Below the pieces are notes generated by a model. It saw nothing but the letters and a program-made list of their open reading frames with translations. It did no database searches and was not told where the DNA came from. The position numbers were made by a program, and so were the translations under genes. Shown piece after piece: positions 10,030-28,812 of a stretch of 28,812 bases of DNA. Origin of the DNA: a virus (taxonomy: Duplodnaviria; Caudoviricetes); IMG/VR virus record IMGVR_UViG_3300020469_000189, positions 1 through 28,812 of that record; one strand, 5' to 3'. How positions within the stretch are numbered: the stretch's first letter is position 1; the number at the start of each line of letters is the position of its first letter.

Positions 10030-10673
10030 TGAAAATATTCGTAGGCTATGAATCGGCATATCCTGAAATGTTTGAAGTGTGTAAGGCATCAATCTTACGA
10101 TTTAATCCTACACACGAAGTTATACCTTTAATTACTTCGGAATTAGAGGAACAGGGAATATACACTAGAAAAGAGAAAGGGAATACCGAATTTGCTTTTA
10201 CTAGATTTCTTGTTCCTTATCTTTCCAACTACATGGGCTATTCTTTATTTTGTGATGGTGACTTTCTATGGAGATGTGACCCACAAGAGATAACTCATTT
10301 TAAGAAAGATAATGAAGAAGTTATGTGTGTACAGCATGCAGACTTAATGTTTGACCAATACACTAAAATGCATGATAAACTAAACAAGCCTTATGATAAA
10401 AAATATTGGTCATCGTTGATGTATTTTAATAATAAAGAATGTGTAAACTTAAATGAGTGGTATGTAAATAATGCAGCCGCTAGGCATCTTCATGGGTTTA
10501 CTTGGGCTAGCAAAGTGGGTTCTTTACCTGCTGCTTACAATGCTTTAGTAAATTATTATGACTTTGGTGAGAGAGCTAAAGGAGTACATTTTACAGATGG
10601 CGGACCATGGATGGGTATAAACGACCATGAGCAATATTGTAAAGAATGGACAGACATATATAATTCATTATAA
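10029..10673 (+). CDS. GT-A glycosyltransferase (GT8/CDI-like)
   Basis: KIFVGY, TEFAFTRFLVPYL, DGD (DxD), WSSLMYFN, YNALV and HFTDGGPW motifs. Confidence 0.8.
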   Translation: MKIFVGYESAYPEMFEVCKASILRFNPTHEVIPLITSELEEQGIYTRKEKGNTEFAFTRFLVPYLSNYMGYSLFCDGDFLWRCDPQEITHFKKDNEEVMCVQHADLMFDQYTKMHDKLNKPYDKKYWSSLMYFNNKECVNLNEWYVNNAAARHLHGFTWASKVGSLPAAYNALVNYYDFGERAKGVHFTDGGPWMGINDHEQYCKEWTDIYNSL

Positions 10674-11590
10674 TGAGAAACATACCTGTAGTAGCAGTAG
10701 ACCAGTATGACTTTTTAGCACACAGACGAGAGCAGGAAAAGAAACATTGGGCAAAAAAGAATAACCTAACAGAGTTAGATTCGATTCTTACTGTTGAAAT
10801 AAATACTACAGAGTTATGTAATAGAACTTGTGTCTTTTGTCCGAGACACGACCCAAAAGTATTTCCAAATAGAAACTTGCATCTTACCATAAAAGGAGCC
10901 GAGACAATAGGTCTCGAACTAGGTAAGGCAGGTTTTAGTGGAAAAATATCATTGAGTGGATTTGGAGAAAATTTACTCAACCCAAATTTCAGAGAGATAG
11001 TTCATATCTTTCGACACACAGTTCCATTAGCAACTTTAGAGTGTAACACTAATGGCGACAAACTTACCCAAACATACGCAGAAGAACTATTTGAATATAG
11101 TGGATTAGATTTAATTTACATAAATCTTTATGATGGCGTAGAGCAAATGACTCATTTCGATAAAGTTATGAAAAATATACCTGAAGAAAAGTACAAGTAT
11201 CGTATGCATTGGGGAGATTTTGAGAACCATGGATTATTACTTAACAACCGTAGCGGGGTCATCGATTGGGTAGGTATAGAAGAATCAAACGTGGCTTCTT
11301 TAAAAGGTAAACCATGTCATTATCCTTTCTATAAAATGTTCGTAGACTGGAATGGAGATGTTCTATTTTGTTCAAACGACTGGGGGAGGGAACATGTTGT
11401 GGGAAATTTACTACAAGATACATTACACAATGTATGGTTTGGTAAACCTATGACAAAAATTCGTAAAAAATTAATAAAAGGAGATAGGTCACACAGCCCT
11501 TGCAATAAGTGTAGTGTTGATGGTTCTCTATTTGGAAAAGAATCTTTTAATCTAGTAAAGGAGTACTATGAAAATCGCAGTAACAGGTAG
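10673..11590 (+). CDS. radical SAM enzyme with C-terminal SPASM/twitch domain
   Basis: CNRTCVFC (CxxxCxxC), GFGE, NTNG; C-terminal CHYPF..VDWNGDVLFC..GNL..W..PCNKC. Confidence 0.9.
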   Translation: MRNIPVVAVDQYDFLAHRREQEKKHWAKKNNLTELDSILTVEINTTELCNRTCVFCPRHDPKVFPNRNLHLTIKGAETIGLELGKAGFSGKISLSGFGENLLNPNFREIVHIFRHTVPLATLECNTNGDKLTQTYAEELFEYSGLDLIYINLYDGVEQMTHFDKVMKNIPEEKYKYRMHWGDFENHGLLLNNRSGVIDWVGIEESNVASLKGKPCHYPFYKMFVDWNGDVLFCSNDWGREHVVGNLLQDTLHNVWFGKPMTKIRKKLIKGDRSHSPCNKCSVDGSLFGKESFNLVKEYYENRSNR

Positions 11591-12071
11591 CAGTAAATTA
11601 GCAAATTGTATACAAGGTAATAAAATAAGAGTAGAGTTTGGGGCAGATTGGTCACAGTATGATGTATTTGTAAACAATGCTCATGTAGAGTGGGAACAGT
11701 GCAGACTTCTCGAAGAAGTGTACGAGGTATGGAAAGATGATGAAACTAAAACAATAGTTAATATTTCGTCAAGAGCCCATCAACCTAATATATCTAAAGG
11801 ATATAAGTACGCCGCACAAAAGGCCGCTCTAAATCATATGGCAACTAACTTAAATTATAACAGTGATGCCAAATGTAGAATTGCTACAATCAACTTTGGG
11901 TTATTAGAGTCTTCAATGCATTCAAGTATCTCATATGAGAGAGCAGGTGAGTGGGTAGATTGGGTGATAAAAAACTCAGACATTACTGAAATAACAATTG
12001 AAAATCCTGCAAATTATATCCAAATTCAAAATGAAAAAGAAATCGCTAGAAGTTTAGGATTGAAGTCATGA
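11568..12071 (+). CDS. minimal short-chain dehydrogenase/reductase
   Basis: KIAVTG, VFVNNA, IVNISS and catalytic YAAQK (YxxxK); only 167 aa. Confidence 0.75.
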   Translation: MKIAVTGSSKLANCIQGNKIRVEFGADWSQYDVFVNNAHVEWEQCRLLEEVYEVWKDDETKTIVNISSRAHQPNISKGYKYAAQKAALNHMATNLNYNSDAKCRIATINFGLLESSMHSSISYERAGEWVDWVIKNSDITEITIENPANYIQIQNEKEIARSLGLKS

Positions 12072-12694
12072 TGGGACGAGTAATATTAGTAGGAAATTCA
12101 GTAGAATTACTTCAACACGAGTATGGCTCATATATTGACAGTTTTGACACAATTGTTAGATTCGGAAAAGGCATACCTACAGATGAAAATTTTGAACAGA
12201 TAGGTAAAAAAACTGATATATGGATTACAGGTTTCTTAAGACAAAGGCACTATCATAGGTTTGAAAATGCCAAAATATTATTTAATCGCTGTAGAATACA
12301 TATGAACACAGAGCCATCTAGTCCTAAATTTACTCAACCGCATGAAGTTATGTTTACAGATAAAGAAATACTAGAAATATTTGATTTAGTAGGAGCTACT
12401 AATGATAAGGCATTAGGTGATCGTCCTTCTGCAGGTTTTCTTGGTATATTGTATTTTTTAAATAAGTGTGAATATGAGAGTATAGAAATCATAGGATTTG
12501 ATTTTTTCTCTAAAAAGTTGCCTTTCTCTACAGGAGCAGACTATCCCGCTAGTTGGCATTTGCCAGTTAATAGTAAGGATAGGAGTCCTCACAATCCAAA
12601 TGAAAAACAAATAGTAAAAGAGTTAGCCGATAGAGGCAAAATTAAATGGAAAGTTCTTTCAGATTTGAAAGAAGAATTTTTAGATTTTTCCTAA
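12068..12694 (+). CDS. GT29 (sialyltransferase-like) glycosyltransferase
   Basis: Sialylmotif-L-like VILVGNS..L...G..IDSFD.IVRF...IGKKTD, S-like PSAGFLGILY...IIGFDF and VS-like H...E. Confidence 0.75.
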   Translation: MMGRVILVGNSVELLQHEYGSYIDSFDTIVRFGKGIPTDENFEQIGKKTDIWITGFLRQRHYHRFENAKILFNRCRIHMNTEPSSPKFTQPHEVMFTDKEILEIFDLVGATNDKALGDRPSAGFLGILYFLNKCEYESIEIIGFDFFSKKLPFSTGADYPASWHLPVNSKDRSPHNPNEKQIVKELADRGKIKWKVLSDLKEEFLDFS

Positions 12695-13630
12695 TCTAAA
12701 TCCTACTTTTACTAAAGACCCAGCTACACGTTTCTGTTTAGTTGATTTCAACATCAAAATTTCATTATTTCGTGCATTTCGCATATTTATAGGTATGCTA
12801 GGAATTAAGTTAGTATACATATCCCATGGAAGAGATAGTTGTATAGTTGTAGGTATCATTGTATAAGTTTGAATTAACCACTTATGTTGTATATTTAATT
12901 GAAAACATTTTCTTAACATTACATTATAGTTAACACTGTCAAGTGGTCCAAGGGATTCTAGTTCTACTAAAATATCATTTTTACCATTCATGTATAGTGG
13001 CATAAATTTATGCTGATAACCTAATAATCTTGTCATAAACCATTCTGTACTTGCTTGATAAAGAAGTCTATCAATCTTAGGCATATTAGGAGATCTTGCT
13101 TCTAAGCCGTCTTTTTCTGTAGGACAGAATAACTCTTCAAGTGAAAAAGTTTTTAACATGTCATAGTTAAATATCATAAACTCTGAATCAATATTTTGTA
13201 GTTTAGTTGGTGAAATAGGTATTTGTAAAATTCTGTAAAAGTCTTTAAATCTTGGATGTTTTCTAAAGACTCTTTTATGTGATAAGAAAGAAACAGACCC
13301 CGCAAAGAATTCTTCATTAGGAAAGTTATTAGACCATTTACCGTTTATTATATTGTTGCCACCTAGCCAAACTATTCTTTTATGTAGTCCACCTTTATCT
13401 TTCCAATGATCCAGTAAGTGACACATACATTTGGCTAAGTCTGATTTTCTCCAAAAAGATTCATATATTTTAACATTTGGAAAGTTATCTACTATCCATT
13501 CAATTGGAGCTTCATCCCAATCTTTATTATTTACATATAGATGTATTCTAACTTCTTCTTTATCGGGCAGGAGTGATGCTAAAGTAAACATACTCCATAC
13601 TTTTTTATAGGGGTGTACTATTTCAATCAT
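12680..13630 (-). CDS. hypothetical protein, possibly a degenerate GT-A (GT8-like) fold
   Basis: Long coupled ORF; TLASLL..RIHLYV and DSEFMIFNY loosely recall GT8 elements, but no clear DxD. Confidence 0.4.
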   Translation of the reverse strand: MIEIVHPYKKVWSMFTLASLLPDKEEVRIHLYVNNKDWDEAPIEWIVDNFPNVKIYESFWRKSDLAKCMCHLLDHWKDKGGLHKRIVWLGGNNIINGKWSNNFPNEEFFAGSVSFLSHKRVFRKHPRFKDFYRILQIPISPTKLQNIDSEFMIFNYDMLKTFSLEELFCPTEKDGLEARSPNMPKIDRLLYQASTEWFMTRLLGYQHKFMPLYMNGKNDILVELESLGPLDSVNYNVMLRKCFQLNIQHKWLIQTYTMIPTTIQLSLPWDMYTNLIPSIPINMRNARNNEILMLKSTKQKRVAGSLVKVGFRLGKI

Positions 13631-14531
13631 TTTTTATCTTTTTAAATTCCCAAAAGTTATCTACATATGCCTGTAGTCTTTCTTCCGCATCTTCATCAAA
13701 TTCAAATATTACTCCAGAGTTTCTTGCTGAGAGTATTTTACAAAGTGCAAGGTACGATTGTCTGTTTGATACTGTATCATAAAAACTTTCGTAAGTTAAT
13801 AAATTTTTCTCTCGTGCTTCTTTAGGAAAGCTAACAAGAGAAAGTCTCTTTCTGAGAAGGAGTGCAATTAATCCCATCTCACTATTTGGAGCAGTCGCTA
13901 CTTCTTTACAATTAAGTAGTAGTTCATACCCACCTTCTTTTTTGTTTAGTACATTTTCTGCACCAAATCTTCTTTTTAAATCGGCAATATAAACATGAGC
14001 AGTAATTGGATGAGGTTTTATTACATATCCTTCATCTACTAATTTCTTTACTCGTCTATAATCAATTACAGTTCCTTTACATAATAAATTACTACCTGGT
14101 AAGAAAATTACTTTATCATAAAATTCTGTATTCCATTGTAAATTATATTTATTCTGTAGTCCATTTACTATTTTTTCGATTCTTTCTTCATCAATCTTTA
14201 TGTCTGAATTAGCAATCGCTTTAAATAATTTGGTGTTAATTTTTATAGAATTAACTCTACAGTATATTCCTTTACCTAAAAAATCTGTATATAACCATTT
14301 TCTAATACTATGTAGTTCATTAGTATTAAACCATAAATCATATTCCCAGTCAACTCCTTCACTAGTGTCAAGAACAAGTTTCTCTTTCAATCTAGCTAAT
14401 CCATCTAAGTCATCTTTAGGTCTTGTACAAGATCCTGACTTCATGAAGTGAGTTGGTATATCTCCCAATGACTCATTTATAGTCATTGCTACCAGTTTAT
14501 TTTTCTTAACTGGCTTCTGCTTTGTTATCAT
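13623..14531 (-). CDS. GT-B glycosyltransferase-like protein (KpsS/KpsC capsule-synthesis type)
   Basis: IKPHP and LL..C.EVAT..NSEMGL.ALL..K.L resemble the HP and NS.G.EA motifs of CMP-Kdo/ulosonic-acid transferases. Start may be the downstream Met (MTINE). Confidence 0.6.
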   Translation of the reverse strand: MITKQKPVKKNKLVAMTINESLGDIPTHFMKSGSCTRPKDDLDGLARLKEKLVLDTSEGVDWEYDLWFNTNELHSIRKWLYTDFLGKGIYCRVNSIKINTKLFKAIANSDIKIDEERIEKIVNGLQNKYNLQWNTEFYDKVIFLPGSNLLCKGTVIDYRRVKKLVDEGYVIKPHPITAHVYIADLKRRFGAENVLNKKEGGYELLLNCKEVATAPNSEMGLIALLLRKRLSLVSFPKEAREKNLLTYESFYDTVSNRQSYLALCKILSARNSGVIFEFDEDAEERLQAYVDNFWEFKKIKND

Positions 14532-14673
14532 TTCTTAGCTTGAAAATTTCTTTTTCTAGGTTTTTTATTCTTTCTTCTGTTTCACCAATATGGTCAAAGA
14601 CGGCTGCCATCATTGACTCTAATTTTTTATTAAGATAGTTTGGTGTAATATCTTCTTGTTCTGCTTTTATCAT
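14506..14673 (-). CDS. small coiled-coil protein
   Basis: ATG at 14673 lies 1 nt after the stop of the Thr-rich gene; heptad-like EERIKNLEKEIFKL. Confidence 0.55.
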   Translation of the reverse strand: MIKAEQEDITPNYLNKKLESMMAAVFDHIGETEERIKNLEKEIFKLRNDNKAEAS

Positions 14674-14674
14674 A

Positions 14675-17419
14675 TTAAGAATCGCTCCATTGTGAGCCAT
14701 CCCAATAAGATAATCCAAAGTCTGCTAGACTCGCAACTTCGGTATCAAAAATTGTACCTGCTTGGGAGGCGGTTATTCTTTCAAATACTGTTGTTGTTGT
14801 ATCGAAAGTTGTTGTTGTTAAGTGATCAGTTGTTCTATTTGTTTCTGTTGCTTTACTTGTGGATATAGTAGTAGTAGTTGTTCTATCTGTTCCAAAAGTA
14901 GTAGTCTTACTTGTTTCAAAAGTGGTTGTAGTTCCAAATACAGTTGTTCTACTTGTTTGAGTAGATTGACTTGTTTCAAAAGTACTTGTTGTTGTTCTGC
15001 TTGAACCAGTTGTTCTACTAGAGGCTGTGCTTCTATCTGTATCAAATGCTGTTGTTGTTGTTCTGCTTGAACCTGTTGACCTAGTTGTAACTGTTCCCTG
15101 TGAAGTTTCAAACGTTGTTGTTGTAGCTCTACTTGAAGCTGTTGACCTAGCTGTATTAAATGTCGTCGTTGTAGAGTGAGATGTTCCAGTAGTTCTAGAA
15201 GATGCTCTTGAAGTAATATAAGCAGTTTCGTACGCTGTGGATTGAGTAGTGTTTGTACTTCTGCTTGTGTTTGTAGCTTGTGTAGTATTTGTACTTCTGC
15301 TTGTGTTTGTAGCTTGTGTAGTAATATATGCACTGATAGTAGCAAATGTTGTATTATCAATGTAAGCTGTATCAGTAGCAAATGTAGTTGCTGTGTTTGT
15401 AGCTTGTGTAGTATTTGTACTTCTTGCTGTGTTTGTAGCTTGAACAGTATTTGTACTTCTGCTTGTTCCAAATGAGGTATTATTTGTGAACGCTGTATTA
15501 TTTGTAAAGCCAGTACTTCTAGAAGTATTTGTTGCTTGTGTAGTATTTGTACTTCTGCTTGTACCAAATGCTGTATTATCTATATAGGCTGTTGATGTGT
15601 TAGTGTTTCTACTTGTATTTGTTGCCTGTGTAGTGTTTGTACTTCTACTGGTGCCAAATGCTGTGTTATCTATATATGCTGTAGTTCTAGAAGTATTTGT
15701 ATTTCTACTTGTTCCAAATGCTGTATTATCAATATACGAAGTAATTCTAGAAGTGTTTGTTGCTCTAGCGGTATTAGTATTTCTACTTGTGTTTGTATTA
15801 ACAGAAGTAGCAGTCGCTCTGCCTGTATTAGTACTATAAGTAGTAGTTCTACTTGTATTTGTTGCATTTGAGAACGCTGTATTATTTGTAAAGCCAGTGC
15901 TTCTAGCTGTATTATTAGTAAATCCAGTTGAATTTGTAAATCCTGTAGATCTACTACCAGCTGTACCTCTAGAAGTGTTAGTACTTCTTGATGTATTATC
16001 ACTTTGCTGATAAAAGTCAGTTCCTTGTTCTGGGTCAAAGTTGAAGTCAATGAATACAGTTATATAAGTAGTAATATTTGTAAATGCAGTATTATTTGTA
16101 ACTGCTGTGTTTCTAGCTGTGTTTGTGTTTCTAGATGTGTTAGTTCCAACCGATGTGTTTCTAGCAGTATTAGTACTTCTAGAAGTGTTTGTATTATTTT
16201 GGAAAACTGTAGTTCTAGCAGTTATATTTGTAAAACTTGTATTGTTTGTAAAAGTAGTAATATCTATATATGCTGTAGAGTTTGTAAAGGCTGTATTGTT
16301 TGTAAAAGAACAAGTTCTACTTGTATTTGTCGCCTGTGTAGTATCATAAGCAGTAGAGTTTGTAAAACCTGTACTTCTACTTGTATTTGTTGCCTGTGTA
16401 GTAGTATAAGCTGTTATAGTAGCAAATGATGTATTATCAATATATGCTGTCGCTGTATTAGTATTTCTAGCAGTATTCGTTGCCTGCGTAGTAGTATAAG
16501 CTGTTATAGTAGCAAATGTTGTATTGTCAATATAAGCAGTATCTCTAGCTGTGTTAGTGCTTCTTGCTGTACTAGTGCTTTGCGTAGTATCATAAGAGGT
16601 TATAGTAGCAAATGATGTATTATCTATATAAGCAGTTGTTGTTGCAAAAGTAGTAGTAGTGCCAGTTGTTTGTGTTGTGTTAGTACTTCTACTTGTATTT
16701 GTAGCTTGTGTAGTATTTGTGCTTACTGTTGTTGCTTGAGAAGTATTATCTATATAAGCCGTATCAGTAGCATAAGTAGTATTATCAATATAAGCAGTTG
16801 TTGTCGCAAATGAAGTATTCCTACTAGTTCCTATTGTTGTATCGAAAGCTGTTATATATGCTGTTGTAGTATTAAATGCGGTAACAGTACTTTTACTTGT
16901 ATTAAATGTTGTAGTTGTAGTAAAGGCCGTTGTAGTCGACTGCGAAGTATTAAATGTTGTTGTTGTATTAAATGTCGTAGTTGTAGTATACGCTGTCGTC
17001 GTACCTTGTGTAGTTGTAAAAGTAGTTGTAGTTGTAAACGCTGTAGTTGTATTAAAAGCAGTTGTAGTACTTGTTGTTGTATTGAATACTGTTGTTGTTG
17101 CAAATGTAGTTGTTCTACTTGTGTCTGTTGTTCTGCTCGTATCGAAAGTTGTAGTTCTACTTGTGTCAAACGTAGTTGTTGTATTATAGTCAGTATCAAA
17201 AGTAGTAGTCGTGTTGAATACTGTATTTTGTACACCTGATATAGTACTAGTAGTTGTAGCAGTTTGTCTTGTAGTTGAGTGCGTAGCAGTAAACGGTCCA
17301 GCTAAAGTTCCGCCATCATTGACGTAAACCTCGTTGACACGACGAATGGTTCCGCTGTCGTTGACAGCGATAAATCGAACAGTCCGTAATGTACCAGAAT
17401 CGTTTACAAATATTGCCAT
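14675..17419 (-). CDS. 914-aa Thr/Asn/Ser-rich self-complementary fibre protein (predicted giant beta-hairpin)
   Basis: Uninterrupted ORF in the operon. N-terminal triple VND(S/G)GT, mirror-symmetric arms (aa 64-452 and 478-866), central FDPEQG, C-terminal YWDGSQW. Confidence 0.85.
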   Translation of the reverse strand: MAIFVNDSGTLRTVRFIAVNDSGTIRRVNEVYVNDGGTLAGPFTATHSTTRQTATTTSTISGVQNTVFNTTTTFDTDYNTTTTFDTSRTTTFDTSRTTDTSRTTTFATTTVFNTTTSTTTAFNTTTAFTTTTTFTTTQGTTTAYTTTTTFNTTTTFNTSQSTTTAFTTTTTFNTSKSTVTAFNTTTAYITAFDTTIGTSRNTSFATTTAYIDNTTYATDTAYIDNTSQATTVSTNTTQATNTSRSTNTTQTTGTTTTFATTTAYIDNTSFATITSYDTTQSTSTARSTNTARDTAYIDNTTFATITAYTTTQATNTARNTNTATAYIDNTSFATITAYTTTQATNTSRSTGFTNSTAYDTTQATNTSRTCSFTNNTAFTNSTAYIDITTFTNNTSFTNITARTTVFQNNTNTSRSTNTARNTSVGTNTSRNTNTARNTAVTNNTAFTNITTYITVFIDFNFDPEQGTDFYQQSDNTSRSTNTSRGTAGSRSTGFTNSTGFTNNTARSTGFTNNTAFSNATNTSRTTTYSTNTGRATATSVNTNTSRNTNTARATNTSRITSYIDNTAFGTSRNTNTSRTTAYIDNTAFGTSRSTNTTQATNTSRNTNTSTAYIDNTAFGTSRSTNTTQATNTSRSTGFTNNTAFTNNTSFGTSRSTNTVQATNTARSTNTTQATNTATTFATDTAYIDNTTFATISAYITTQATNTSRSTNTTQATNTSRSTNTTQSTAYETAYITSRASSRTTGTSHSTTTTFNTARSTASSRATTTTFETSQGTVTTRSTGSSRTTTTAFDTDRSTASSRTTGSSRTTTSTFETSQSTQTSRTTVFGTTTTFETSKTTTFGTDRTTTTTISTSKATETNRTTDHLTTTTFDTTTTVFERITASQAGTIFDTEVASLADFGLSYWDGSQWSDS

Positions 17420-17648: not shown

Positions 17649-20600
17649 TTATACCTCTATTGTTGTTCTTATAAATTTATAAGCCATTGTGTCACCACTT
17701 GCTGGTGTCACTCTTAATCTTACAGCGCCACTGCTTATATCTGCATCAAATGTTGCTTGTGCCCCATTGTCAAATATAGAAGCGTACTGCGTTAAATAAA
17801 CTGTTGTTCCGTCATGGAAAAGTGTTATTTCTAGTGATTGATAATCACTGTCTGTTGAATTTGTTATCTGTACTAAGTACTTAGCAGTTCTAAATACTGA
17901 AGCTGTAAAACTATCTAGTGTAAATACTGTTGTTGCTGAAGAAGTTCCTGAGCCAACATCCATACCAGCTACTTGACCTATGTGAAATTTCTGTGGAGGT
18001 GATGTATCTTGAAGACCTATTCTACTTCCAAAGTAAGCAGTATTAGAGTCTCCAGCTCCCATAAATAAGTCTCCTGTAAATCCAACAGTACCTGACAAAA
18101 ACTTACCACCAAGTGCTGCACTTGATAATTGTGTAGTTGTTATAGAATTATTTGCAATCTCACTTGTACCTACTGCGTTTGCTGCTATTTTAGCTGCTGT
18201 TACAGCATTAGCATTTATTTTTGCAGTTGTTACTTGTAAAGCTCCTAGATGTATTGTATCTATTGAGCCAGTCTTTAATTCTGCGCTGTCTACTGCATTG
18301 GCTGCTATCTCTGCTGAGCCTACTGCATCCGTAGCTATTAAGTCTGCAGTAATTAATCCTGATGATATCATACCTACATTGTTAATTGCATTGTCTGCCA
18401 TCTTAGCTGCTGTTACTTGGTCATCTCCAATATGTATAGTATCAATACTACCACTTACTAATTCTGATGAATCTACGGAGTTAGCCGCTAATTCTGAGGA
18501 GCCTATTGCTCCTGCAGTAATTGATTCTGCTGTTACTGAATTACTTGCAATCTCACTTGAACCAACAGCGTTTGCTTGTATCTTTGCGGCTGTTACAGAG
18601 TTACCTGCTAATTGAGCAGTATTAACCTGTGCATCATCAATATGTCTAGTAAGAATACTATTTTGTGCTATCTTAGTTCCATCTACTGCGTTATCTGCAA
18701 TATTACCAGTAGCAATAGTATTAGCTGCTATATCTCCTGATACAATAGTTCCATTAGATATTAAGTCTGATGTAATTAAACCGCTTGATATAAATGCTAC
18801 ACTATTAATAGCGTTATCACCTATTTTAGCTGATGTTACTGCATCACTTGCTAGTTGAGCTGCTCCTACTTGTCCATCATCAATATGTTTTGTTAAGATA
18901 CTGTTCTGAGCGATCTTAGTTCCATCTACCGCGTTATCTGCTATGTTTCCTGTTGCTATTGTGTTTGCTGCTATTTCTGCTGTTGTAACACTTCCTGCTA
19001 CAATCTTACTTGCATTAACAGTATTGTTTGCTATTGCACTTGCTGTACCTGTTAAGTTACCTGTTACATTTCCTTCTATGTCTGCTACTAGTACCCCTTT
19101 TGTATAACCTGTTCCTGAAGTATTTACAGTTGTAGTTGGTTGTACTTGTAAATCTTTAAATATTTGCCACTTACCAGAGTTATCTGCGTTTCTGAATATA
19201 CCTGAGTATTTGTCTGTACCACTAGTATCGTATAATCCATAGAAACCTATATCAACTGCATCTGAACTTCCGTTGCCAGTTGCCATTGAGATAAGAGAAT
19301 CTCCAGTTGTAATTGTGGTAGCTGAAGCTGCGAATGAGGTTCCTGATACTGTCACATTTCCTGAGAAAGTAACATTACCTGACATTGTCTGTCCACTTAA
19401 TGCATCTGATTTAAGTTCTGCTACTGATACAGCATTTGCTGCTATCTGTGTAGCTGTTACTGCATTTCCAGATATTTCTACTGCAGATACTGAATTTACT
19501 GCAAGTTTTGCATTTGTTACTTGGTCGTCTGCTATATGTATTGTGTCTATTGAGCCTGATACTAGTTCTGCAGTATCTACTGAGTTTGCACCTAATTGAG
19601 TACTAGTGATACTTCCGTCTGCAATCTTAGCCGCAGTAACTGCGTTATCTGCTATCTTTGCTGTTGTTACATTAGCATTTAATATTTTTGCTGTTGTAAC
19701 TGAATCAGAAGCTAGGTGTATGGCGTCTATTGAGCCACTTACTATTTCTGCTGTATCTACAGAGTTTGCAGCAAGTTGATCTGCTGTAATCTGTGCATCG
19801 TCTATGTGTCTTGTTAAAATACTATTAGAAGCAATTTTTGTACTGTCTACTGCATTATCTGCTATCTTACCTGTTGCTATAGTATTATCTGCTATATCTC
19901 CTGATACAATAGTACCATCTGCGATATGGTCTGAAGCAATTACTCCAGAAGGTAGCTTAGCTGCTGTAATAGCATTATCTGCTATTTTACCAGTTGTTAC
20001 ATTACTATTAGCTATTTTAGCTGTAGTTACTTGTGAAGCTCCTATATGTATAGTATCTATACTACCTGTTATTAGTTCTGCACTATCTACAGAGTTAGCC
20101 GCTAATAAATCTGCGGTAACAGTACCAGCTGGTATTTGAGTAGCCGTGACCGAGTTATTTGCTATTTCACTACTTCCTACTGAATTTACTGCAATTTTTG
20201 CACTTGTTACTGAGTTAGCGGCTAGTTTAGCTGCTGTTACTTGTAAAGCCCCTAGATGTATTGTATCTATTGAACCTGTTTTTAATTCTGATGAGTCTAC
20301 TGCATTTGCTGATATTTCTGCGTTTGCTATAGCGTTAGCAGCTACGTGTCTTGCTACTATTGAATCTGTTGCTATTTCAGCTCCTGTTACATTGTTTGCA
20401 GCTATCTTAGATGTTATTATTTGTGCAGTAGCAATGTGAGAAGAGTCTATACTTCCGTCTATTAACTGAAGACTATCAACTGAATTAGTTGCTAGTGCAG
20501 CTGTGTCTATTGAGTTATCTGCAACTCCTGTTACTGCTGACTGTTGTAGTTGAGCTGCTGCAATAGCATTAGTTGATATTTCACTAGTTCCTATTGCGTT

Positions 20601-20738
20601 TGCTGCTATTTCACTTGATCCAACAGCGTTTGCTGCTATTTCACTTGCTGTAATTGAATTACTTACTATTTCAGTAGTACCTACTGCATTCGCCTCAAGT
20701 GAGGAGACTAATGCATTACTTTTTCCTATGAGTGACAT
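17649..20738 (-). CDS. long tail-fibre-like protein with decapeptide repeats
   Basis: Dozens of ~10-aa repeats (IAANAVGSSE / KIADNAVTAA), a central DIGFYG..YSGIFR knob and a C-terminal DSF...RTAKYLVQI...HDGT beta domain. Confidence 0.75.
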   Translation of the reverse strand: MSLIGKSNALVSSLEANAVGTTEIVSNSITASEIAANAVGSSEIAANAIGTSEISTNAIAAAQLQQSAVTGVADNSIDTAALATNSVDSLQLIDGSIDSSHIATAQIITSKIAANNVTGAEIATDSIVARHVAANAIANAEISANAVDSSELKTGSIDTIHLGALQVTAAKLAANSVTSAKIAVNSVGSSEIANNSVTATQIPAGTVTADLLAANSVDSAELITGSIDTIHIGASQVTTAKIANSNVTTGKIADNAITAAKLPSGVIASDHIADGTIVSGDIADNTIATGKIADNAVDSTKIASNSILTRHIDDAQITADQLAANSVDTAEIVSGSIDAIHLASDSVTTAKILNANVTTAKIADNAVTAAKIADGSITSTQLGANSVDTAELVSGSIDTIHIADDQVTNAKLAVNSVSAVEISGNAVTATQIAANAVSVAELKSDALSGQTMSGNVTFSGNVTVSGTSFAASATTITTGDSLISMATGNGSSDAVDIGFYGLYDTSGTDKYSGIFRNADNSGKWQIFKDLQVQPTTTVNTSGTGYTKGVLVADIEGNVTGNLTGTASAIANNTVNASKIVAGSVTTAEIAANTIATGNIADNAVDGTKIAQNSILTKHIDDGQVGAAQLASDAVTSAKIGDNAINSVAFISSGLITSDLISNGTIVSGDIAANTIATGNIADNAVDGTKIAQNSILTRHIDDAQVNTAQLAGNSVTAAKIQANAVGSSEIASNSVTAESITAGAIGSSELAANSVDSSELVSGSIDTIHIGDDQVTAAKMADNAINNVGMISSGLITADLIATDAVGSAEIAANAVDSAELKTGSIDTIHLGALQVTTAKINANAVTAAKIAANAVGTSEIANNSITTTQLSSAALGGKFLSGTVGFTGDLFMGAGDSNTAYFGSRIGLQDTSPPQKFHIGQVAGMDVGSGTSSATTVFTLDSFTASVFRTAKYLVQITNSTDSDYQSLEITLFHDGTTVYLTQYASIFDNGAQATFDADISSGAVRLRVTPASGDTMAYKFIRTTIEV

Positions 20739-24104: not shown

Positions 24105-27100
24105 TTACTCCTTAATTGCTAGTGCGTTATGTGTTACATAGTTTTCTGTAATATAAGTATCTGCATCTTCAACATCGATATTATAAGTTTGAACTTCTTC
24201 GTCTACTCTTTGTTTACGCCAGACTTTTTCTAATACCAAATTATCTGTAACTAAAAAATCTCCTAAAATTATATCTTCTGCAGTTTTCCACATATAGGTT
24301 TCTCCTCTCAATATTAAGAAAGGATGTTCATAGGTTGCGTGTAGTGTTTCATTTATTCTATAGAACCATGTATAAGAGTCTACCCCTATTGCTTTTACTA
24401 CAGAAGTAGTTTTAGAGGCATTTACTAGTGAAGTAGCAGTCCAAGTTTTGTAAGCATCTTCATTGCTTTCATCTAAAGTAGTATCTGTTACGGCTTGTAG
24501 TGAATCTCCGACAGCTATATCTTGAACTTTTTTAGTTGTACCATCTGCCATTCTTATATTTGAGCCGTACACAAGACAACCACCGCCGCCACCGCCACCA
24601 GAGCCACCGCCACCGCCGCCTCCAGAGGTACCTCCAGTTGTTACTTGGAATGTTTCTTCAAATCCACCAATAGTTGCACTTACTTGTGAGAGTGTTAAGT
24701 TTGAGCCAGAAGAAGTATGTGCTATGTTAATATAACTTCCATTTGCTATCTGTGAATTACCAGTTACAAAACTACCACCATCAATACTGTATTGTGCGGA
24801 AGAACTAACTGTTTTTGTTCCTGTAAATCCGCCAGTTACTTGTGAGTTTGCATAATACGTTGTGCTTAAAGCAGCACCTGTTATATTAGTAAAACTAAAT
24901 AATGGGTCTGTAGTTCCGAACTTAACAAAGTTATATCTTACGAATCCTAATCTTGATGAGTTATTGTCTCCCTGTGCATATATGTATAATTTTACAGTTC
25001 CAGTTCCTGGATATTTAAATGATACTGGTATAGAGCCTTGTGTTCTAGATGATTGGTCTGGGTTATTACTTGATACTTCTGATGCAAATATTCTTGATTC
25101 ATGGACATATCCATCAATGTTTCTTACAAGTCTTGTACTAAATGGATTCGATTCTCCTTGCTGTACAACATTTTGGTCCTGCGTACCAACAGTAGTTACA
25201 AAACTACTGTTATCAGATACATGGAAGTGCATTGATTTTACATGACTTATTCCTCCAATTCCTGATATAACAATATTACCAACATAGTATCCTGCTCCTG
25301 TACCTACTGTTCCTATCAATCGATAGTTATAATCATTTTCATAGAATGTTCCAATAGTAGTACCAGTTGTATTAGCACCTGTAGAGTTTAGAGTAATATT
25401 TGCTGTTGTTAATGTTCCGTTTACAGTAACATCATCTCCTTCTAATGTTCCTTTAAATTTGGCGTTACCTGATGTATCAATATAGAACTCTTTTGCGGAG
25501 ATAAATCCAGCACTACCTAGAGTAATACCTGCTGAAGCAAAGGTTGCATTTGCTGCTCCACTTGCATTAGTACTAGCAAAGGTTGTGCCTGTAAGTGCCC
25601 ATCCTCCTGCGCTCCCTCCTCCAACAGTCAAAGTCATTGAATCTGTTGAAGATATTTTAGCATTTGTAATTGCATTTGAATTTATCTCTGCTGTATTAAT
25701 ACTACATGCGGATATCTTAGCAGAATTAATAGCATTAGCAGCAATCATAGCATTAGTAATATCTCCATTACCTACACTAATTTTTGCAAAATCAATAGAG
25801 CCTGTTCCGATAGCTATTTTTGCTATGTCTATAGAACCTGTACCAATAGCTATTTTTGCTATGTCTATAGAACCTGTACCAATAGCTATTTTTGCTATAT
25901 CAATATCTCCTGTTCCGATAGCTATTTTTGCTATGTCTATGGAGCCTGTTCCTATAGCTATTTTTGCTATACCAATATCTCCTGTGCCAATAGCTATTTT
26001 TGCTATGTCTATAGAGCCTGTTCCGATACTTATTTTTGCTATGTCTATAGCTCCAGTCGCGCTTATTTCTGCGTTTGTTATACTGTTTGCTACAATTTTT
26101 GCTGCTGTGATTGAATTAGCTTGAACATGGTCGCCGTTTACAGAATCATTTTGAATGACAAGACTAGTTACAGAGTTAATTGCTATCTGATTATTCTCAA
26201 TAGAGTTTGCTGCAATAACAATTGCATTTACTGAATTTGCTTTTAATTGATTTGACTCAATAGCATTTGCAGCTATAACAACTGCATTTACTGAGTTTGC
26301 TGCTATCTCTGAATTGCCTATTGCATTTGCTTGAATTATAGCTGCTGTTACTGAATTTGATTTTAGCTGTGCATTTTCTATAGAGTTAGCAGCTATACTA
26401 TCTACGTTGATAGCATTACTGGCTACACTTGCATTTACTATAGCATTAGCAGCTACACCAACTGTTGTTATAGCATTTCCTGCTACTTGGTCAGTATCAA
26501 CTGCTCCATTTTGAATTATTATTCCATTTACAGAATTGATTGCGATTTCGCTACTTCCTACTGAATTTCCTAATAATATGGTTCCATTTACTGAGTTAGC
26601 AGCTATTGAAGCTGAAGTAACTGAGTTTGCAGATATCTCTGCATTATTAATTGTGTTTGCCCCTATTTGAATACTTCCTACAGAGTTAGAAGCTAGTTCT
26701 ACTCCTGTAATACTATTTGCTGTAACTGTAAAAGCACCTACTGCGTCTGATGTAAGTTGAGCGGCTGTAATACTATTAGCTGTTATTGCTACTGTTCCGA
26801 TTGAATTTGCTGATATCTCTGAACTACCAATAGCATTGGTTGCTATAGCTATACCACCTATTGAATTAGCGGCTATTTCTGAAGTACCAATAGCGTTAGC
26901 TGATATATTTACGGCTCCAATAGCATTTGCTGCTATTTCTGAACTACCAATAGCACCTGCTATTATATTTGCTTCACCTATTGAGTTAGCTGATATTTCA
27001 CTTGAACCAATAGCATTTGATACTATTGCTACTGCACTGATTGAGTTTGCTGCTATTTGCACTCCGCCTATTGAGTTTCCAGCTATCTGTACACTTCCAA

Positions 27101-28812
27101 TGGCGTTTGCTCCGACTTCATCATCATTGTCTATTTTTACTTTATTTGTGAATGAAGTGATAGCAAAGGTTCCAGCATTATTAGCTACTTTTGCGATTAC
27201 TGCATCTGAAGAAGAATCTATTCTTAATGCTTGTCTAAATATATTTTTACCAGAGTATGCTCTTGAAGGTGCAGAACTTATATTCATACTTGTATCACTT
27301 TCTATATAAGATACTGTAGAATAGAATCTTGTTGCTCCTGCAACATCTACTATAACTACATCTCCTGCTCTAAAATCTGTTGTGAACGCTGTACTCGTTC
27401 CTGTTATTGTACTAGACCCAGCTGGTAAAGCTATTGTTCCAGTTGCTTGTACTATATCATTATTTGACTCTCCGAGTCTTTTCATAAATGTATATAGTAT
27501 TTTATTACCATTAACATCTGCAGCATCTTCATCCGTATGTAAATGTATTGCTTGTAATGGGTCTGACCTTGTAGTTCCTCTATCTAAGGCTCCATCATAG
27601 TCAAATAATAGATAACCAGTTTCTCCATTTGCTAAGTTATTAAAACCTGCCTGTGTGGTAAAATTAGTGTTTGCACTTGCGAAAGCTAATCCTTCTGCTC
27701 CATTTAATGGTTGGTATGAGTATGTGTTATTTGAAAAAGTTATAGTACCATTTGAAGTATTGATATTTTGAGTAGCAGTTAATAAACCACCTCTTACAAT
27801 ACTACCATTTAATCCTGCTGGTATAATATCCGCAGAAAAAGGCGCTAGACTAGAGACATCAAAGTCTACTTTTGTTTGTATGTAAGAAGATGTTTGTCCA
27901 CTTGTATTTCTTGTTTGAACTCTTAATATGTATTCATCTCCAACTACTACATTTCGTATAGTATAGGAAACTTGTTTGTCTACATCTATTTTTACAAATT
28001 CATCGTGATTTGGGTCATGGGCTTCAGTCTGTGCATTATGTTGTATTCTATATCCTGCTAAATGTTCGTATACATCAGTTAAAGTATTACCATCACTATC
28101 TGTTCTAGTAGAAGTAGGATGAGTCCAAGATAATAAAATATCATAACCAGATACTCCCGCATCTAATGTTGTATTGTCTCCACCACTAGGTATTATAGCC
28201 GCTGTTAGATTTTGAGGTACTGGTACTTCTTCTGATCTTTTTGGTTTTCTTAATTCTGCTGGAAGTTCTGGTATTTCATATCCTCTATCTACTGCATTGA
28301 ACTTTTTAACATTGTATTCAGCAGCATTAATATCGAAAGTCATTTCATCACTATTTTCTTTTAATGAAGTAATAATATATTGTTTTATGTTCCCAGTTAC
28401 CTCTACACCTTTGTCTGTTTCTCCAGATATAGCATAGATAACTTCTCCATTTGGTACAGAACTAAATGCACTTGATACAGTTATTGAGGTTGAATTAAAA
28501 GAACTTACTGGTTGTGTTTCTACTCTAACTTCTTCTGAGTAATACATCTGTACTAAAGCACCTGCATCATCTTTAACGTTTCTTGCTTTTTCTTCGTTGT
28601 CAATAGCTCCACCATCCTCGTCAACTAATACTAAATCTCCTTCTCTATAAACTACGGAATTAATAGTTGCTGTCTGTTGAGTTAAATATGCACCACCGCT
28701 AGGATATATTAAATGTAATTCATAACTATTATTTGAATTTAAAGTACTTGATAAATCTCTATCTGTTTTTATTACTGTAGTAGTTGAATTTGATGCAGTT
28801 GTAACTCTACCA
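24105..28812 (-). CDS. 5'-truncated large tail-tip / central fibre protein with FN3-like domain, repeat shaft and C-terminal Hint domain
   Basis: Frame stays open from 28547 to the window end. Tip-J-like I.AAEYN..KF segment, FN3-like LSWTHP..GYRIQ..YILRVQTRN..G.TS, IAANSI repeats, poly-Gly linker, Hint domain. Confidence 0.8.
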   Translation of the reverse strand, partial: GRVTTASNSTTTVIKTDRDLSSTLNSNNSYELHLIYPSGGAYLTQQTATINSVVYREGDLVLVDEDGGAIDNEEKARNVKDDAGALVQMYYSEEVRVETQPVSSFNSTSITVSSAFSSVPNGEVIYAISGETDKGVEVTGNIKQYIITSLKENSDEMTFDINAAEYNVKKFNAVDRGYEIPELPAELRKPKRSEEVPVPQNLTAAIIPSGGDNTTLDAGVSGYDILLSWTHPTSTRTDSDGNTLTDVYEHLAGYRIQHNAQTEAHDPNHDEFVKIDVDKQVSYTIRNVVVGDEYILRVQTRNTSGQTSSYIQTKVDFDVSSLAPFSADIIPAGLNGSIVRGGLLTATQNINTSNGTITFSNNTYSYQPLNGAEGLAFASANTNFTTQAGFNNLANGETGYLLFDYDGALDRGTTRSDPLQAIHLHTDEDAADVNGNKILYTFMKRLGESNNDIVQATGTIALPAGSSTITGTSTAFTTDFRAGDVVIVDVAGATRFYSTVSYIESDTSMNISSAPSRAYSGKNIFRQALRIDSSSDAVIAKVANNAGTFAITSFTNKVKIDNDDEVGANAIGSVQIAGNSIGGVQIAANSISAVAIVSNAIGSSEISANSIGEANIIAGAIGSSEIAANAIGAVNISANAIGTSEIAANSIGGIAIATNAIGSSEISANSIGTVAITANSITAAQLTSDAVGAFTVTANSITGVELASNSVGSIQIGANTINNAEISANSVTSASIAANSVNGTILLGNSVGSSEIAINSVNGIIIQNGAVDTDQVAGNAITTVGVAANAIVNASVASNAINVDSIAANSIENAQLKSNSVTAAIIQANAIGNSEIAANSVNAVVIAANAIESNQLKANSVNAIVIAANSIENNQIAINSVTSLVIQNDSVNGDHVQANSITAAKIVANSITNAEISATGAIDIAKISIGTGSIDIAKIAIGTGDIGIAKIAIGTGSIDIAKIAIGTGDIDIAKIAIGTGSIDIAKIAIGTGSIDIAKIAIGTGSIDFAKISVGNGDITNAMIAANAINSAKISACSINTAEINSNAITNAKISSTDSMTLTVGGGSAGGWALTGTTFASTNASGAANATFASAGITLGSAGFISAKEFYIDTSGNAKFKGTLEGDDVTVNGTLTTANITLNSTGANTTGTTIGTFYENDYNYRLIGTVGTGAGYYVGNIVISGIGGISHVKSMHFHVSDNSSFVTTVGTQDQNVVQQGESNPFSTRLVRNIDGYVHESRIFASEVSSNNPDQSSRTQGSIPVSFKYPGTGTVKLYIYAQGDNNSSRLGFVRYNFVKFGTTDPLFSFTNITGAALSTTYYANSQVTGGFTGTKTVSSSAQYSIDGGSFVTGNSQIANGSYINIAHTSSGSNLTLSQVSATIGGFEETFQVTTGGTSGGGGGGGSGGGGGGGCLVYGSNIRMADGTTKKVQDIAVGDSLQAVTDTTLDESNEDAYKTWTATSLVNASKTTSVVKAIGVDSYTWFYRINETLHATYEHPFLILRGETYMWKTAEDIILGDFLVTDNLVLEKVWRKQRVDEEVQTYNIDVEDADTYITENYVTHNALAIKE
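24126..24578 (-). other. Hint (intein-like) autoprocessing domain, ~151 aa, no homing endonuclease
   Basis: Block A CLVYGS.I.MADG..K.VQDI.VGD, block B TYEHPF, block F YNIDVEDADTY, terminal THN followed by Ala. Confidence 0.88.
25767..26054 (-). repeat. coding tandem repeat, 8 x 36 bp (G[S/D/A]IDIAKIAIGT)
   Basis: Units such as atagctatttttgctatgtctatagaacctgtacca repeat directly on the + strand. Confidence 0.9.

Follow-up and report, generated by a model that had tools for sequence, protein, structure and literature searches.

The 28,812-nucleotide stretch of DNA from an uncultured marine phage analysed here (the window; positions 1 to 28,812 of IMG/VR record IMGVR_UViG_3300020469_000189, Caudoviricetes) is an AT-rich piece of 28.8 kb in which plus-strand DNA-metabolism genes meet minus-strand genes resembling those of tail fibres. 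One of the latter encodes a Thr-rich protein of 914 amino acids (aa) whose two arms are complementary to one another in reverse: aromatic residues in one are matched by Arg, Gln, Lys or His in the other, at positions adding up to 930. This reverse complementarity is real and strongly selected and, to judge from the sequence, the chain very probably folds back into an antiparallel β-hairpin that would form a thin virion fibre. The protein is of low complexity (Thr, Ser and Asn make up 57% of it) and is divided as follows:

14675..17419, minus strand: Thr-rich, mirror-coded protein of 914 aa (333 Thr), predicted to form a fold-back β-hairpin fibre
17231..17419, minus strand: N-terminal base segment, residues 1–63; three VND-x-G-T repeats, strongly conserved, with invariant columns in family profile A1
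16064..17230, minus strand: outbound arm, residues 64–452; bulky residues at even positions, spaced by 4, 6, 8 or 10
15989..16063, minus strand: tip, residues 453–477; turn-like D-P-x-x-G motif, variable in relatives
14822..15988, minus strand: return arm, residues 478–866; complements the outbound arm at i+j = 930
14678..14821, minus strand: C-terminal base segment, residues 867–914; ends in WDG-x-x-W, which anchors an invariant register (W+24)

Complementarity was scored as the number of pairs of F, Y or W with R, Q, K or H, counted at every value of i+j. The first-pass annotation of the window had proposed the relation and expected a single sharp peak at i+j = 930; 66 pairs were counted at this sum, compared with 39 at 924, 36 at 936 and no more than 20 at any other. 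The 12 residue pairs it had quoted as examples all exist and add up to 930, one of them (Q64:H866) being polar:polar rather than aromatic:polar, and its estimate of about 64 complementary pairs in about 73 mirrored sites agrees with the 64 of 73 found at the even bulky positions between 64 and 452. The other nine sites are two same-class polar:polar pairs (Q64:H866 and Q228:Q702) and seven orphans; as had been stated, no aromatic:aromatic or R:R pair occurs among the 73. T:T occupies a further 91 sites on the same face within this interval, and 66 of the 68 even bulky positions of the N-terminal arm have a mirror partner. The supposed restriction of bulky residues to even positions holds for 142 of the 149 present in residues 64–866 and fails for seven. 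The three 8-residue gaps are mirrored between the arms; in the run of 4-residue steps assigned to 188–204, position 196 is Ile, which is not bulky, opposite Y734. Every second residue, that is, one face of the chain, is either Thr or a member of one of ~70 mirrored aromatic:Arg/Gln/Lys pairs, while the opposite face carries small residues (Thr, Ser, Ala, Asn and Gly).

The peak was compared with four shuffle nulls (2000 shuffles each, scoring the maximum over all sums) and a permutation null (20,000). Shuffling of residues gave a mean maximum of 15.8 pairs (highest value, 21), that of dipeptides 21.6 (32), that of segments 23.3 (32) and that of 60-residue blocks 31.6 (60). When identities were permuted on fixed positions, 36.7 ± 3.9 pairs were obtained at 930, with 53 the highest value in 20,000. 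The 66 pairs observed were not reached in any shuffle of the five kinds.

Long and short relatives

Thr-rich open reading frames (ORFs) were collected from 174 loci (174 ORFs); after removal of 46 duplicates and 31 incomplete sequences, 98 distinct complete proteins remained, the window's included. Their lengths range from 624 to 1621 aa (2.6-fold), the arms of L101 and L038 reaching ~720 residues. All 98 exceeded their own shuffle maximum, all 98 carry ND at position 6, and in 95 the complementarity peak lies exactly 24 past the last tryptophan of the WDG motif (W+24), which supports the mirror relation in the homologue check suggested for it. In the outer stems of 60 representatives, 3839 sites were complementary, 730 orphan, 11 polar:polar and nine aromatic:aromatic. 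Antiparallel self-alignment of the relatives yielded one nested stem with no convincing branch; a branched (cloverleaf) folding was considered for the long relatives and rejected, since their inner parts proved to be nested stems that are only slightly offset. All or part of the stretch was found in 20 public runs from 16 studies, mostly marine.

One-arm indels in homologues had been named as a point on which the fold-back could fail. Indels came in mirrored sets in both arms: the window protein and its relative L002 differ by 12 substitutions plus one 42-residue insertion per arm (+42/+42), and the indel lists of L143/L165 [-20,+16], L061/L062 [-20,-6] and L139/L094 [-40,+4] are the same in both arms. 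That the arms are free of gaps is true of the window protein; elsewhere in the family, one-residue bulges and one-arm indels occur. Near-identical alleles of the window protein and L002 (L070, L071, L074, L089 and L072) show +42 or -62 in one arm, and are either assembly chimeras or real evolutionary intermediates. P0001 (165 aa, 73% identical in its best segment) has lost almost all of both arms and still shows W+24; this minimal version is either natural or mis-assembled.

Short relatives are widespread; they were found by profile searches, and their carriers among cultured phages by tracing the downstream gene. Proteins of 280–430 aa had the same terminal motifs, mirror arms of 70–140 residues and, where the chain would turn back, an aromatic-rich head of 70–80 aa that varies among them. 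This globular head takes the place of the tip, which in the window protein is a 25-residue loop only. A family of base-less minis had its peak at length+9 or length+10 in 28 of 34 members (P0026–P0077, L176–L190 and P0079–P0127 comprise the short relatives with a central head and the base-less minis). Five further minis are encoded by cultured vibriophages:

L193:3881–4474 (KVP40.0254), L194, L196:2501–3034, and L197 and L198 from 2501: cultured minis

These are 168–185 aa long (~176 aa for KVP40.0254) and combine an N-terminal adaptor-like domain with a mirror hairpin of 50–60 residues closed by short Gly-containing loops, some between a Cys pair. They form nine (KVP40.0254), nine (VS1), 12 (6E35.1a), 13 (D479) and 11 (F86) pairs, counts reached by 0 of 2000 shuffles in each case, and the orientations of the pairs differ among the five. 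In contrast, RTH11, which has the same N-terminal domain without Thr-rich arms, gave no mirror signal. The arm code and gene neighbours of the cultured minis are common to the window protein while the base is not, and we infer common descent of the arms in both. The mini ORF is unannotated in D479 and F86, and is called 'cell wall mannoprotein' in some records.

Thr-rich proteins are also encoded by Caulobacter podophages (L192:4162–4809, Lullwater gp41; L200:1857–2510, BL199 gp042), between a tail fibre gene and a phrog_26179 gene. Only their outer arms show a clear mirror code (p = 0.02 and p = 0.0005, respectively). In P0099–P0101, P0105, P0108, P0060 and P0110–P0130, Thr-rich arms are joined either to a C-terminal Hint-like domain (by eye) or to an S74 chaperone domain (PF13884).

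The 914-aa protein itself had no sequence match in Pfam, PHROG or PDB, and a single-sequence homologue search with it found nothing. Family profiles A1 and A4 had no PHROG, Pfam or PDB match beyond one at chance level (E-value 0.9). A tblastn search of cultured phages with the N-terminal 100 aa returned only Pectobacterium ZF40 (E 6e-3), the short relative P0032 had no match in cultured phages, and a scan of GTDB gave one 12-residue match that was judged irrelevant.

The residue code and the proposed fold

Between close pairs of relatives, 124 conservative changes were counted and most substitutions kept the residue class; the aromatic was kept with its partner lost in 36 cases, the reverse occurring in five. 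At column 78 the orientation of the pair is swapped between lineages (YI in 23 and QF, RF or KY in 30 of 60 representatives). The partners of 4659 aromatics were Arg (2827), Gln (1004), Lys (274), Ile (149) and Leu (85), among others. Since Leu, Ile, Val and Asn can also partner an aromatic, the common element appears to be a long side chain stacked on the ring rather than a strict cation–π pair. Two residues beyond the aromatic, Asn or Asp occurred almost solely opposite Arg (F:R with Asn, 506; Y:R with Asp, 461; F:Q, 2 of 925; the counts take in related sequences), a three-residue coupling across the arms. Pro was present in the 17-residue tip of 30 of 60 representatives and at 31 of 52,671 arm residues; the centre of the fold is, by this composition, turn-like. 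In one lineage the register shifts repeatedly by +1 at a GLAAV-type motif, the pattern that β-bulges would produce; these may be programmed kinks. Up to six one-residue N-arm insertions at this motif were seen in L032, L019, L041, L064, L023, L016, L136 and L067, often ~21 residues apart.

The hydrogen-bond register may be 928, 930 or 932 and so may differ from the peak in the sequence; given this uncertainty of 2, aromatic and Arg may be diagonal rather than directly opposite. The strand ends of the P0032 model sum to peak-2 (from DSSP limits) and D479 has its Cys pair at peak-2 around a Gly-Lys loop; the Lys-Gly centre of KVP40.0254 fits the peak itself, and the full-length model contains a low-confidence strand pair at peak+2. 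Backbone partners most likely lie at i+j = 928, because Arg would then cross the ring and reach the Asn or Asp beyond it, which would also explain why Gln does not recruit these residues; the preference follows the rules of hairpin geometry. A 932 register, suggested by the Asn/Asp:Arg counts and the low-confidence strand pair, is now less favoured than 928 or 930. No usable source for the geometry of diagonal aromatic–cation pairs was found in the literature searched.

The reverse match of the arms persists in relatives whose lengths differ widely, and the chain therefore likely folds back on itself and zips up. The turn would be at residues 453–477, giving one very long antiparallel β-hairpin of ~385 pairs; the rise per residue in a β strand is 2.9–3.4 Å, and as a single ribbon the hairpin would measure 110–130 nm. 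Both termini would form the base at the virion, leaving the variable tip as the outward, host-facing end. The irregular series of pairs would hold to a single register a Thr-rich chain that could otherwise slip, Arg probably lying across the ring and being capped by the Asn or Asp two residues on, and changes of length may arise by duplication in one arm that is later matched in the other. This agrees with the fold-back put forward in the first-pass annotation, which finds support in the fixed register, the mirrored indels, the central turn or head and the model of a short relative. On balance, three hairpins would bundle into a trimer like the gp37 needle of T4, the hairpin otherwise standing as a single ribbon; glycosylation of its Thr/Ser surface by the KpsC-like product of a neighbouring gene (phrog_26179) is an evenly balanced proposition. 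A broader picture, towards which we lean slightly, is that of widespread phage fibres, with arms from 50 residues (KVP40) to ~720 residues (marine phages) and hairpins of up to ~240 nm, whose fold is written like a nucleic-acid stem by an aperiodic aromatic:Arg(+Asn/Asp) register, with mirrored indels, swaps, programmed bulges, interchangeable tips and a sugar coat made by the co-inherited KpsC-like enzyme.

Structure prediction, one of the checks suggested, was usable for a short relative and not for the full protein. AlphaFold2 (AF2) built P0032 (66 rows; mean predicted local distance difference test score, pLDDT, 55) with strands at 100–120 and 197–217, 21 residues each, pairing the inner arms and leading into a confident head. 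Fold searches with this model revealed no significant match (best Z of 3.2 with VIA; no Foldseek match at E ≤ 0.001). A complex prediction with three copies of residues 325–605 scored 0.01, which is evidence neither way.

Several observations weigh against the fold-back fibre. The AF2 model of the full protein was uninformative (pLDDT 30.5; predicted template modelling score 0.20), the sole block with pLDDT > 50 being at the tip (strands 458–461 and 468–471); the outer arms of P0032 fell below pLDDT 50, so that antiparallel support from modelling amounts to 21 pairs in one relative. The virion location of the protein is itself a prediction. The mirror signal of some short relatives was not significant singly, and only 52–66% of the bulky residues were paired in L048, L141, L147, L029, L134 and L060. 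True orientation swaps in close relatives were rare (three vs ~2200 unchanged or conservative sites). A one-arm offset of at least 10 was recorded in 16 of the 98 proteins; 13 of these share at least 99% identity with a balanced sibling, a pattern consistent with mis-assembled repeats or transient intermediates. The other three, L145 (97%), L107 (95%) and L087 (92%), have no near-identical balanced sibling, and nor does L106. Moreover, the balanced set was picked by balance and the equal indel sums within it are partly circular, a circularity from which the count of 82 balanced proteins in 98 and the length range are free. The glycosyltransferase assignment of the phrog_26179 protein is weak, and in DLP6 the same downstream genes follow a tail protein without a Thr-rich hairpin, which would link the module to fibres generally.

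Sequence covariation is blind to whether pairs form within or between chains, and extended chains might pair head-to-tail between molecules, as an antiparallel dimer or a domain-swapped filament of ~260 nm, without folding back; in the gp37 needle, a single sheet is built from three chains, according to the available part of PMC9659904. We consider this improbable, given the turn motifs or variable globular head found at the centre, the short loops of the cultured minis, which contain Gly and in some cases lie between a Cys pair, and the AF2 model of P0032, in which the inner arms pair within one chain. Partial swapping inside a trimer would be compatible with the fold-back hairpin.

Less probable again is an unfolded, mucin-like, glycosylated Thr/Ser spacer whose mirror pattern would arise incidentally from low complexity and the duplication of repeats. 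The composition noted above, the adjoining glycosyltransferase candidates and the low AF2 confidence would suit such a spacer, and protein palindromes are usually low-complexity by-products (PMC2474621, as far as its accessible text goes). The relation found here, however, is one of complementarity and not identity, survives the block and segment shuffles, keeps an exact register across proteins of 624–1621 aa and includes the three-residue coupling across the arms.

A parallel β-solenoid or triple β-helix of ~6-residue repeats is very unlikely: six is the commonest spacing and the best parallel offset (49% same-class), but the spacings are irregular (4, 6, 8 or 10), no parallel offset exceeds 0.49 same-class or 0.37 complementary, compared with 64 of 73 on the anti-diagonal, and nothing in a solenoid would call for mirrored indels hundreds of residues apart.

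An origin in the DNA itself (an inverted repeat acting through sense–antisense coding or an RNA stem) or in faulty assembly is largely refuted. In this gene the in-register reverse-complement identity was 0.38, above the 0.354 ± 0.008 of synonymous shuffles (z = 3.0, or 2.0 with a context-aware null), and the one-arm variants among relatives do resemble repeat mis-assembly. The synonymous excess was not replicated over 59 genes, though (mean z of 0.38 in register vs 0.21–0.44 off register), the arms are neither inverted nor mirror repeats at the DNA level, no long inverted repeat was found, and only 9 of 389 codon pairs are exact reverse complements, with only 3 of 64 pairs open to a sense–antisense reading. 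Contigs from four studies tile most of the gene and agree over it, with 0–1 differences in the main pieces; each covers part of the gene, positions 15282–15394 lying outside the listed pieces.

The neighbouring genes

The gene lies in a tail-fibre module, as indicated by its tail-fibre neighbours and conserved synteny. Synteny was counted over 59 representative loci, the misses including contig ends:

17423..17647, minus strand: 74-aa ORF directly upstream; homologue in 59 of 59 loci
17649..20738, minus strand: 1029-aa tail-fibre-like repeat protein (phrog_892 tail fiber, E 8.6e-101); 56 of 59 loci
14506..14673, minus strand: small coiled-coil ORF (~55 aa from the ATG at 14673, 64 aa from 14700); 58 of 59 loci
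13623..14531, minus strand: 302-aa phrog_26179 protein, weakly KpsC/Capsule_synth/GT52-like; 56 of 59 loci
12680..13630, minus strand: 316-aa ORF of the module; 53 of 59 loci
12068..12694, plus strand: convergent GT29 sialyltransferase-like gene (PF00777, E 2.5e-9); 50 of 59 loci

The 74-aa product may be an adaptor and the coiled-coil protein, which matches HSBP1 below the curated cutoff (E 0.0012), a candidate chaperone; KVP40.0254 is also followed by a similar small ORF. The 1029-aa protein has Ala/Ile/Asn-rich decapeptide-like repeats and varies in length among relatives. The phrog_26179 protein is a candidate glycosyltransferase, weakly KpsC-like in sequence: it can be aligned with KpsC (6mgb; PDB E 0.42) at a K-P-H-P motif and at a segment further downstream, it scores 0.95 in the Atlas to a cluster with 13% Capsule_synth members, and one of 34 family members matches Capsule_synth (E 0.006) and one of 34 GT52, both below thresholds. 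In otherwise unrelated phages, among 15 loci with a short hairpin gene, its gene was located after the latter in 10 and was partial in one more, the other four contigs ending there; it also follows the hairpin or Thr-rich gene in KVP40 and the Caulobacter podophages. The 316-aa ORF had no family match and nothing significant in PDB or Pfam. A scan for promoters and terminators gave chance-level results, and contigs from RNA libraries cover parts of the region without demonstrating its transcription.

Further away, 24105–28547 (minus strand) encodes a virion-like protein of 1480 aa that weakly matches fn3 and, at its C terminus, Hint; in DLP6 a large protein with a Hint-like end lies directly before the same downstream module. 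Auxiliary genes on the plus strand (2393–2827 and 10673–12071) encode cytochrome c, radical SAM/SPASM and short-chain dehydrogenase proteins.

Comparison with known systems

In the gp37 needle of phage T4 each chain runs out and back, and HxH motifs bind iron along the axis. The needle is a six-stranded antiparallel β-structure of three chains with a receptor-binding head at its end (Bartual et al. 2010, in the available part of PMC9659904). The short relatives share this layout of base, arms and head, and the fibre proposed here would work like the needle, but neither the 914-aa protein nor the family profiles match gp37 in sequence, and the former has only three isolated His (H47, H748 and H866), with no HxH. 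The whole binding region of gp37 spans 215 residues, by the same partial source, compared with ~390 per arm here; the register of the window protein comes from an aperiodic aromatic:Arg series, and its trimer is only proposed.

The phrog_26179 matches to KpsC/KpsS (Capsule_synth, PF05159) and GT52, the known enzymes nearest to it, all remained below thresholds. Designed β-hairpin peptides use cross-strand or diagonal aromatic–cation pairs and Thr-rich strands over 12–20 residues; the natural family has ~65–130 pairs in series. Protein palindromes have in common with it a reverse relation in low-complexity sequence, but those described in the accessible part of PMC2474621 are short, identity-based, often helical and mostly judged non-functional, whereas here the relation is one of reverse complementarity, extends over hundreds of residues and is under selection. 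In the literature searched (mostly without subscription journals, and without supplements), no account of a fibre of this kind was found.

Should the fold prove correct, a single sequence would suffice to read the register, much as with an RNA stem; the family would show how slippage is avoided in a low-complexity chain, supply simple design rules for long β-ribbons of chosen length and represent a phage appendage of a new kind. Its short members in cultured phages (KVP40.0254) already bring the idea within experimental reach. The β-hairpin tentacles of phage chaperones (Alteromonas A5 gp9, and the intramolecular chaperones of T5 and K1F) are likewise hairpins of two twisted, polar strands, long and variable in length, that belong to tail-fibre modules, the longest measuring ~88 Å (PMC10579305, in the part available). 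They are ~14-fold shorter and emerge from a helical core of the S74 type, and no mirror code is described for them in that part; the S74 domain (PF13884) is absent from the Pfam results for the window protein and present in some distant Thr-rich relatives. The hairpin proposed here would be a natural β-hairpin more than 10 times as long as these tentacles, the longest that we found described.

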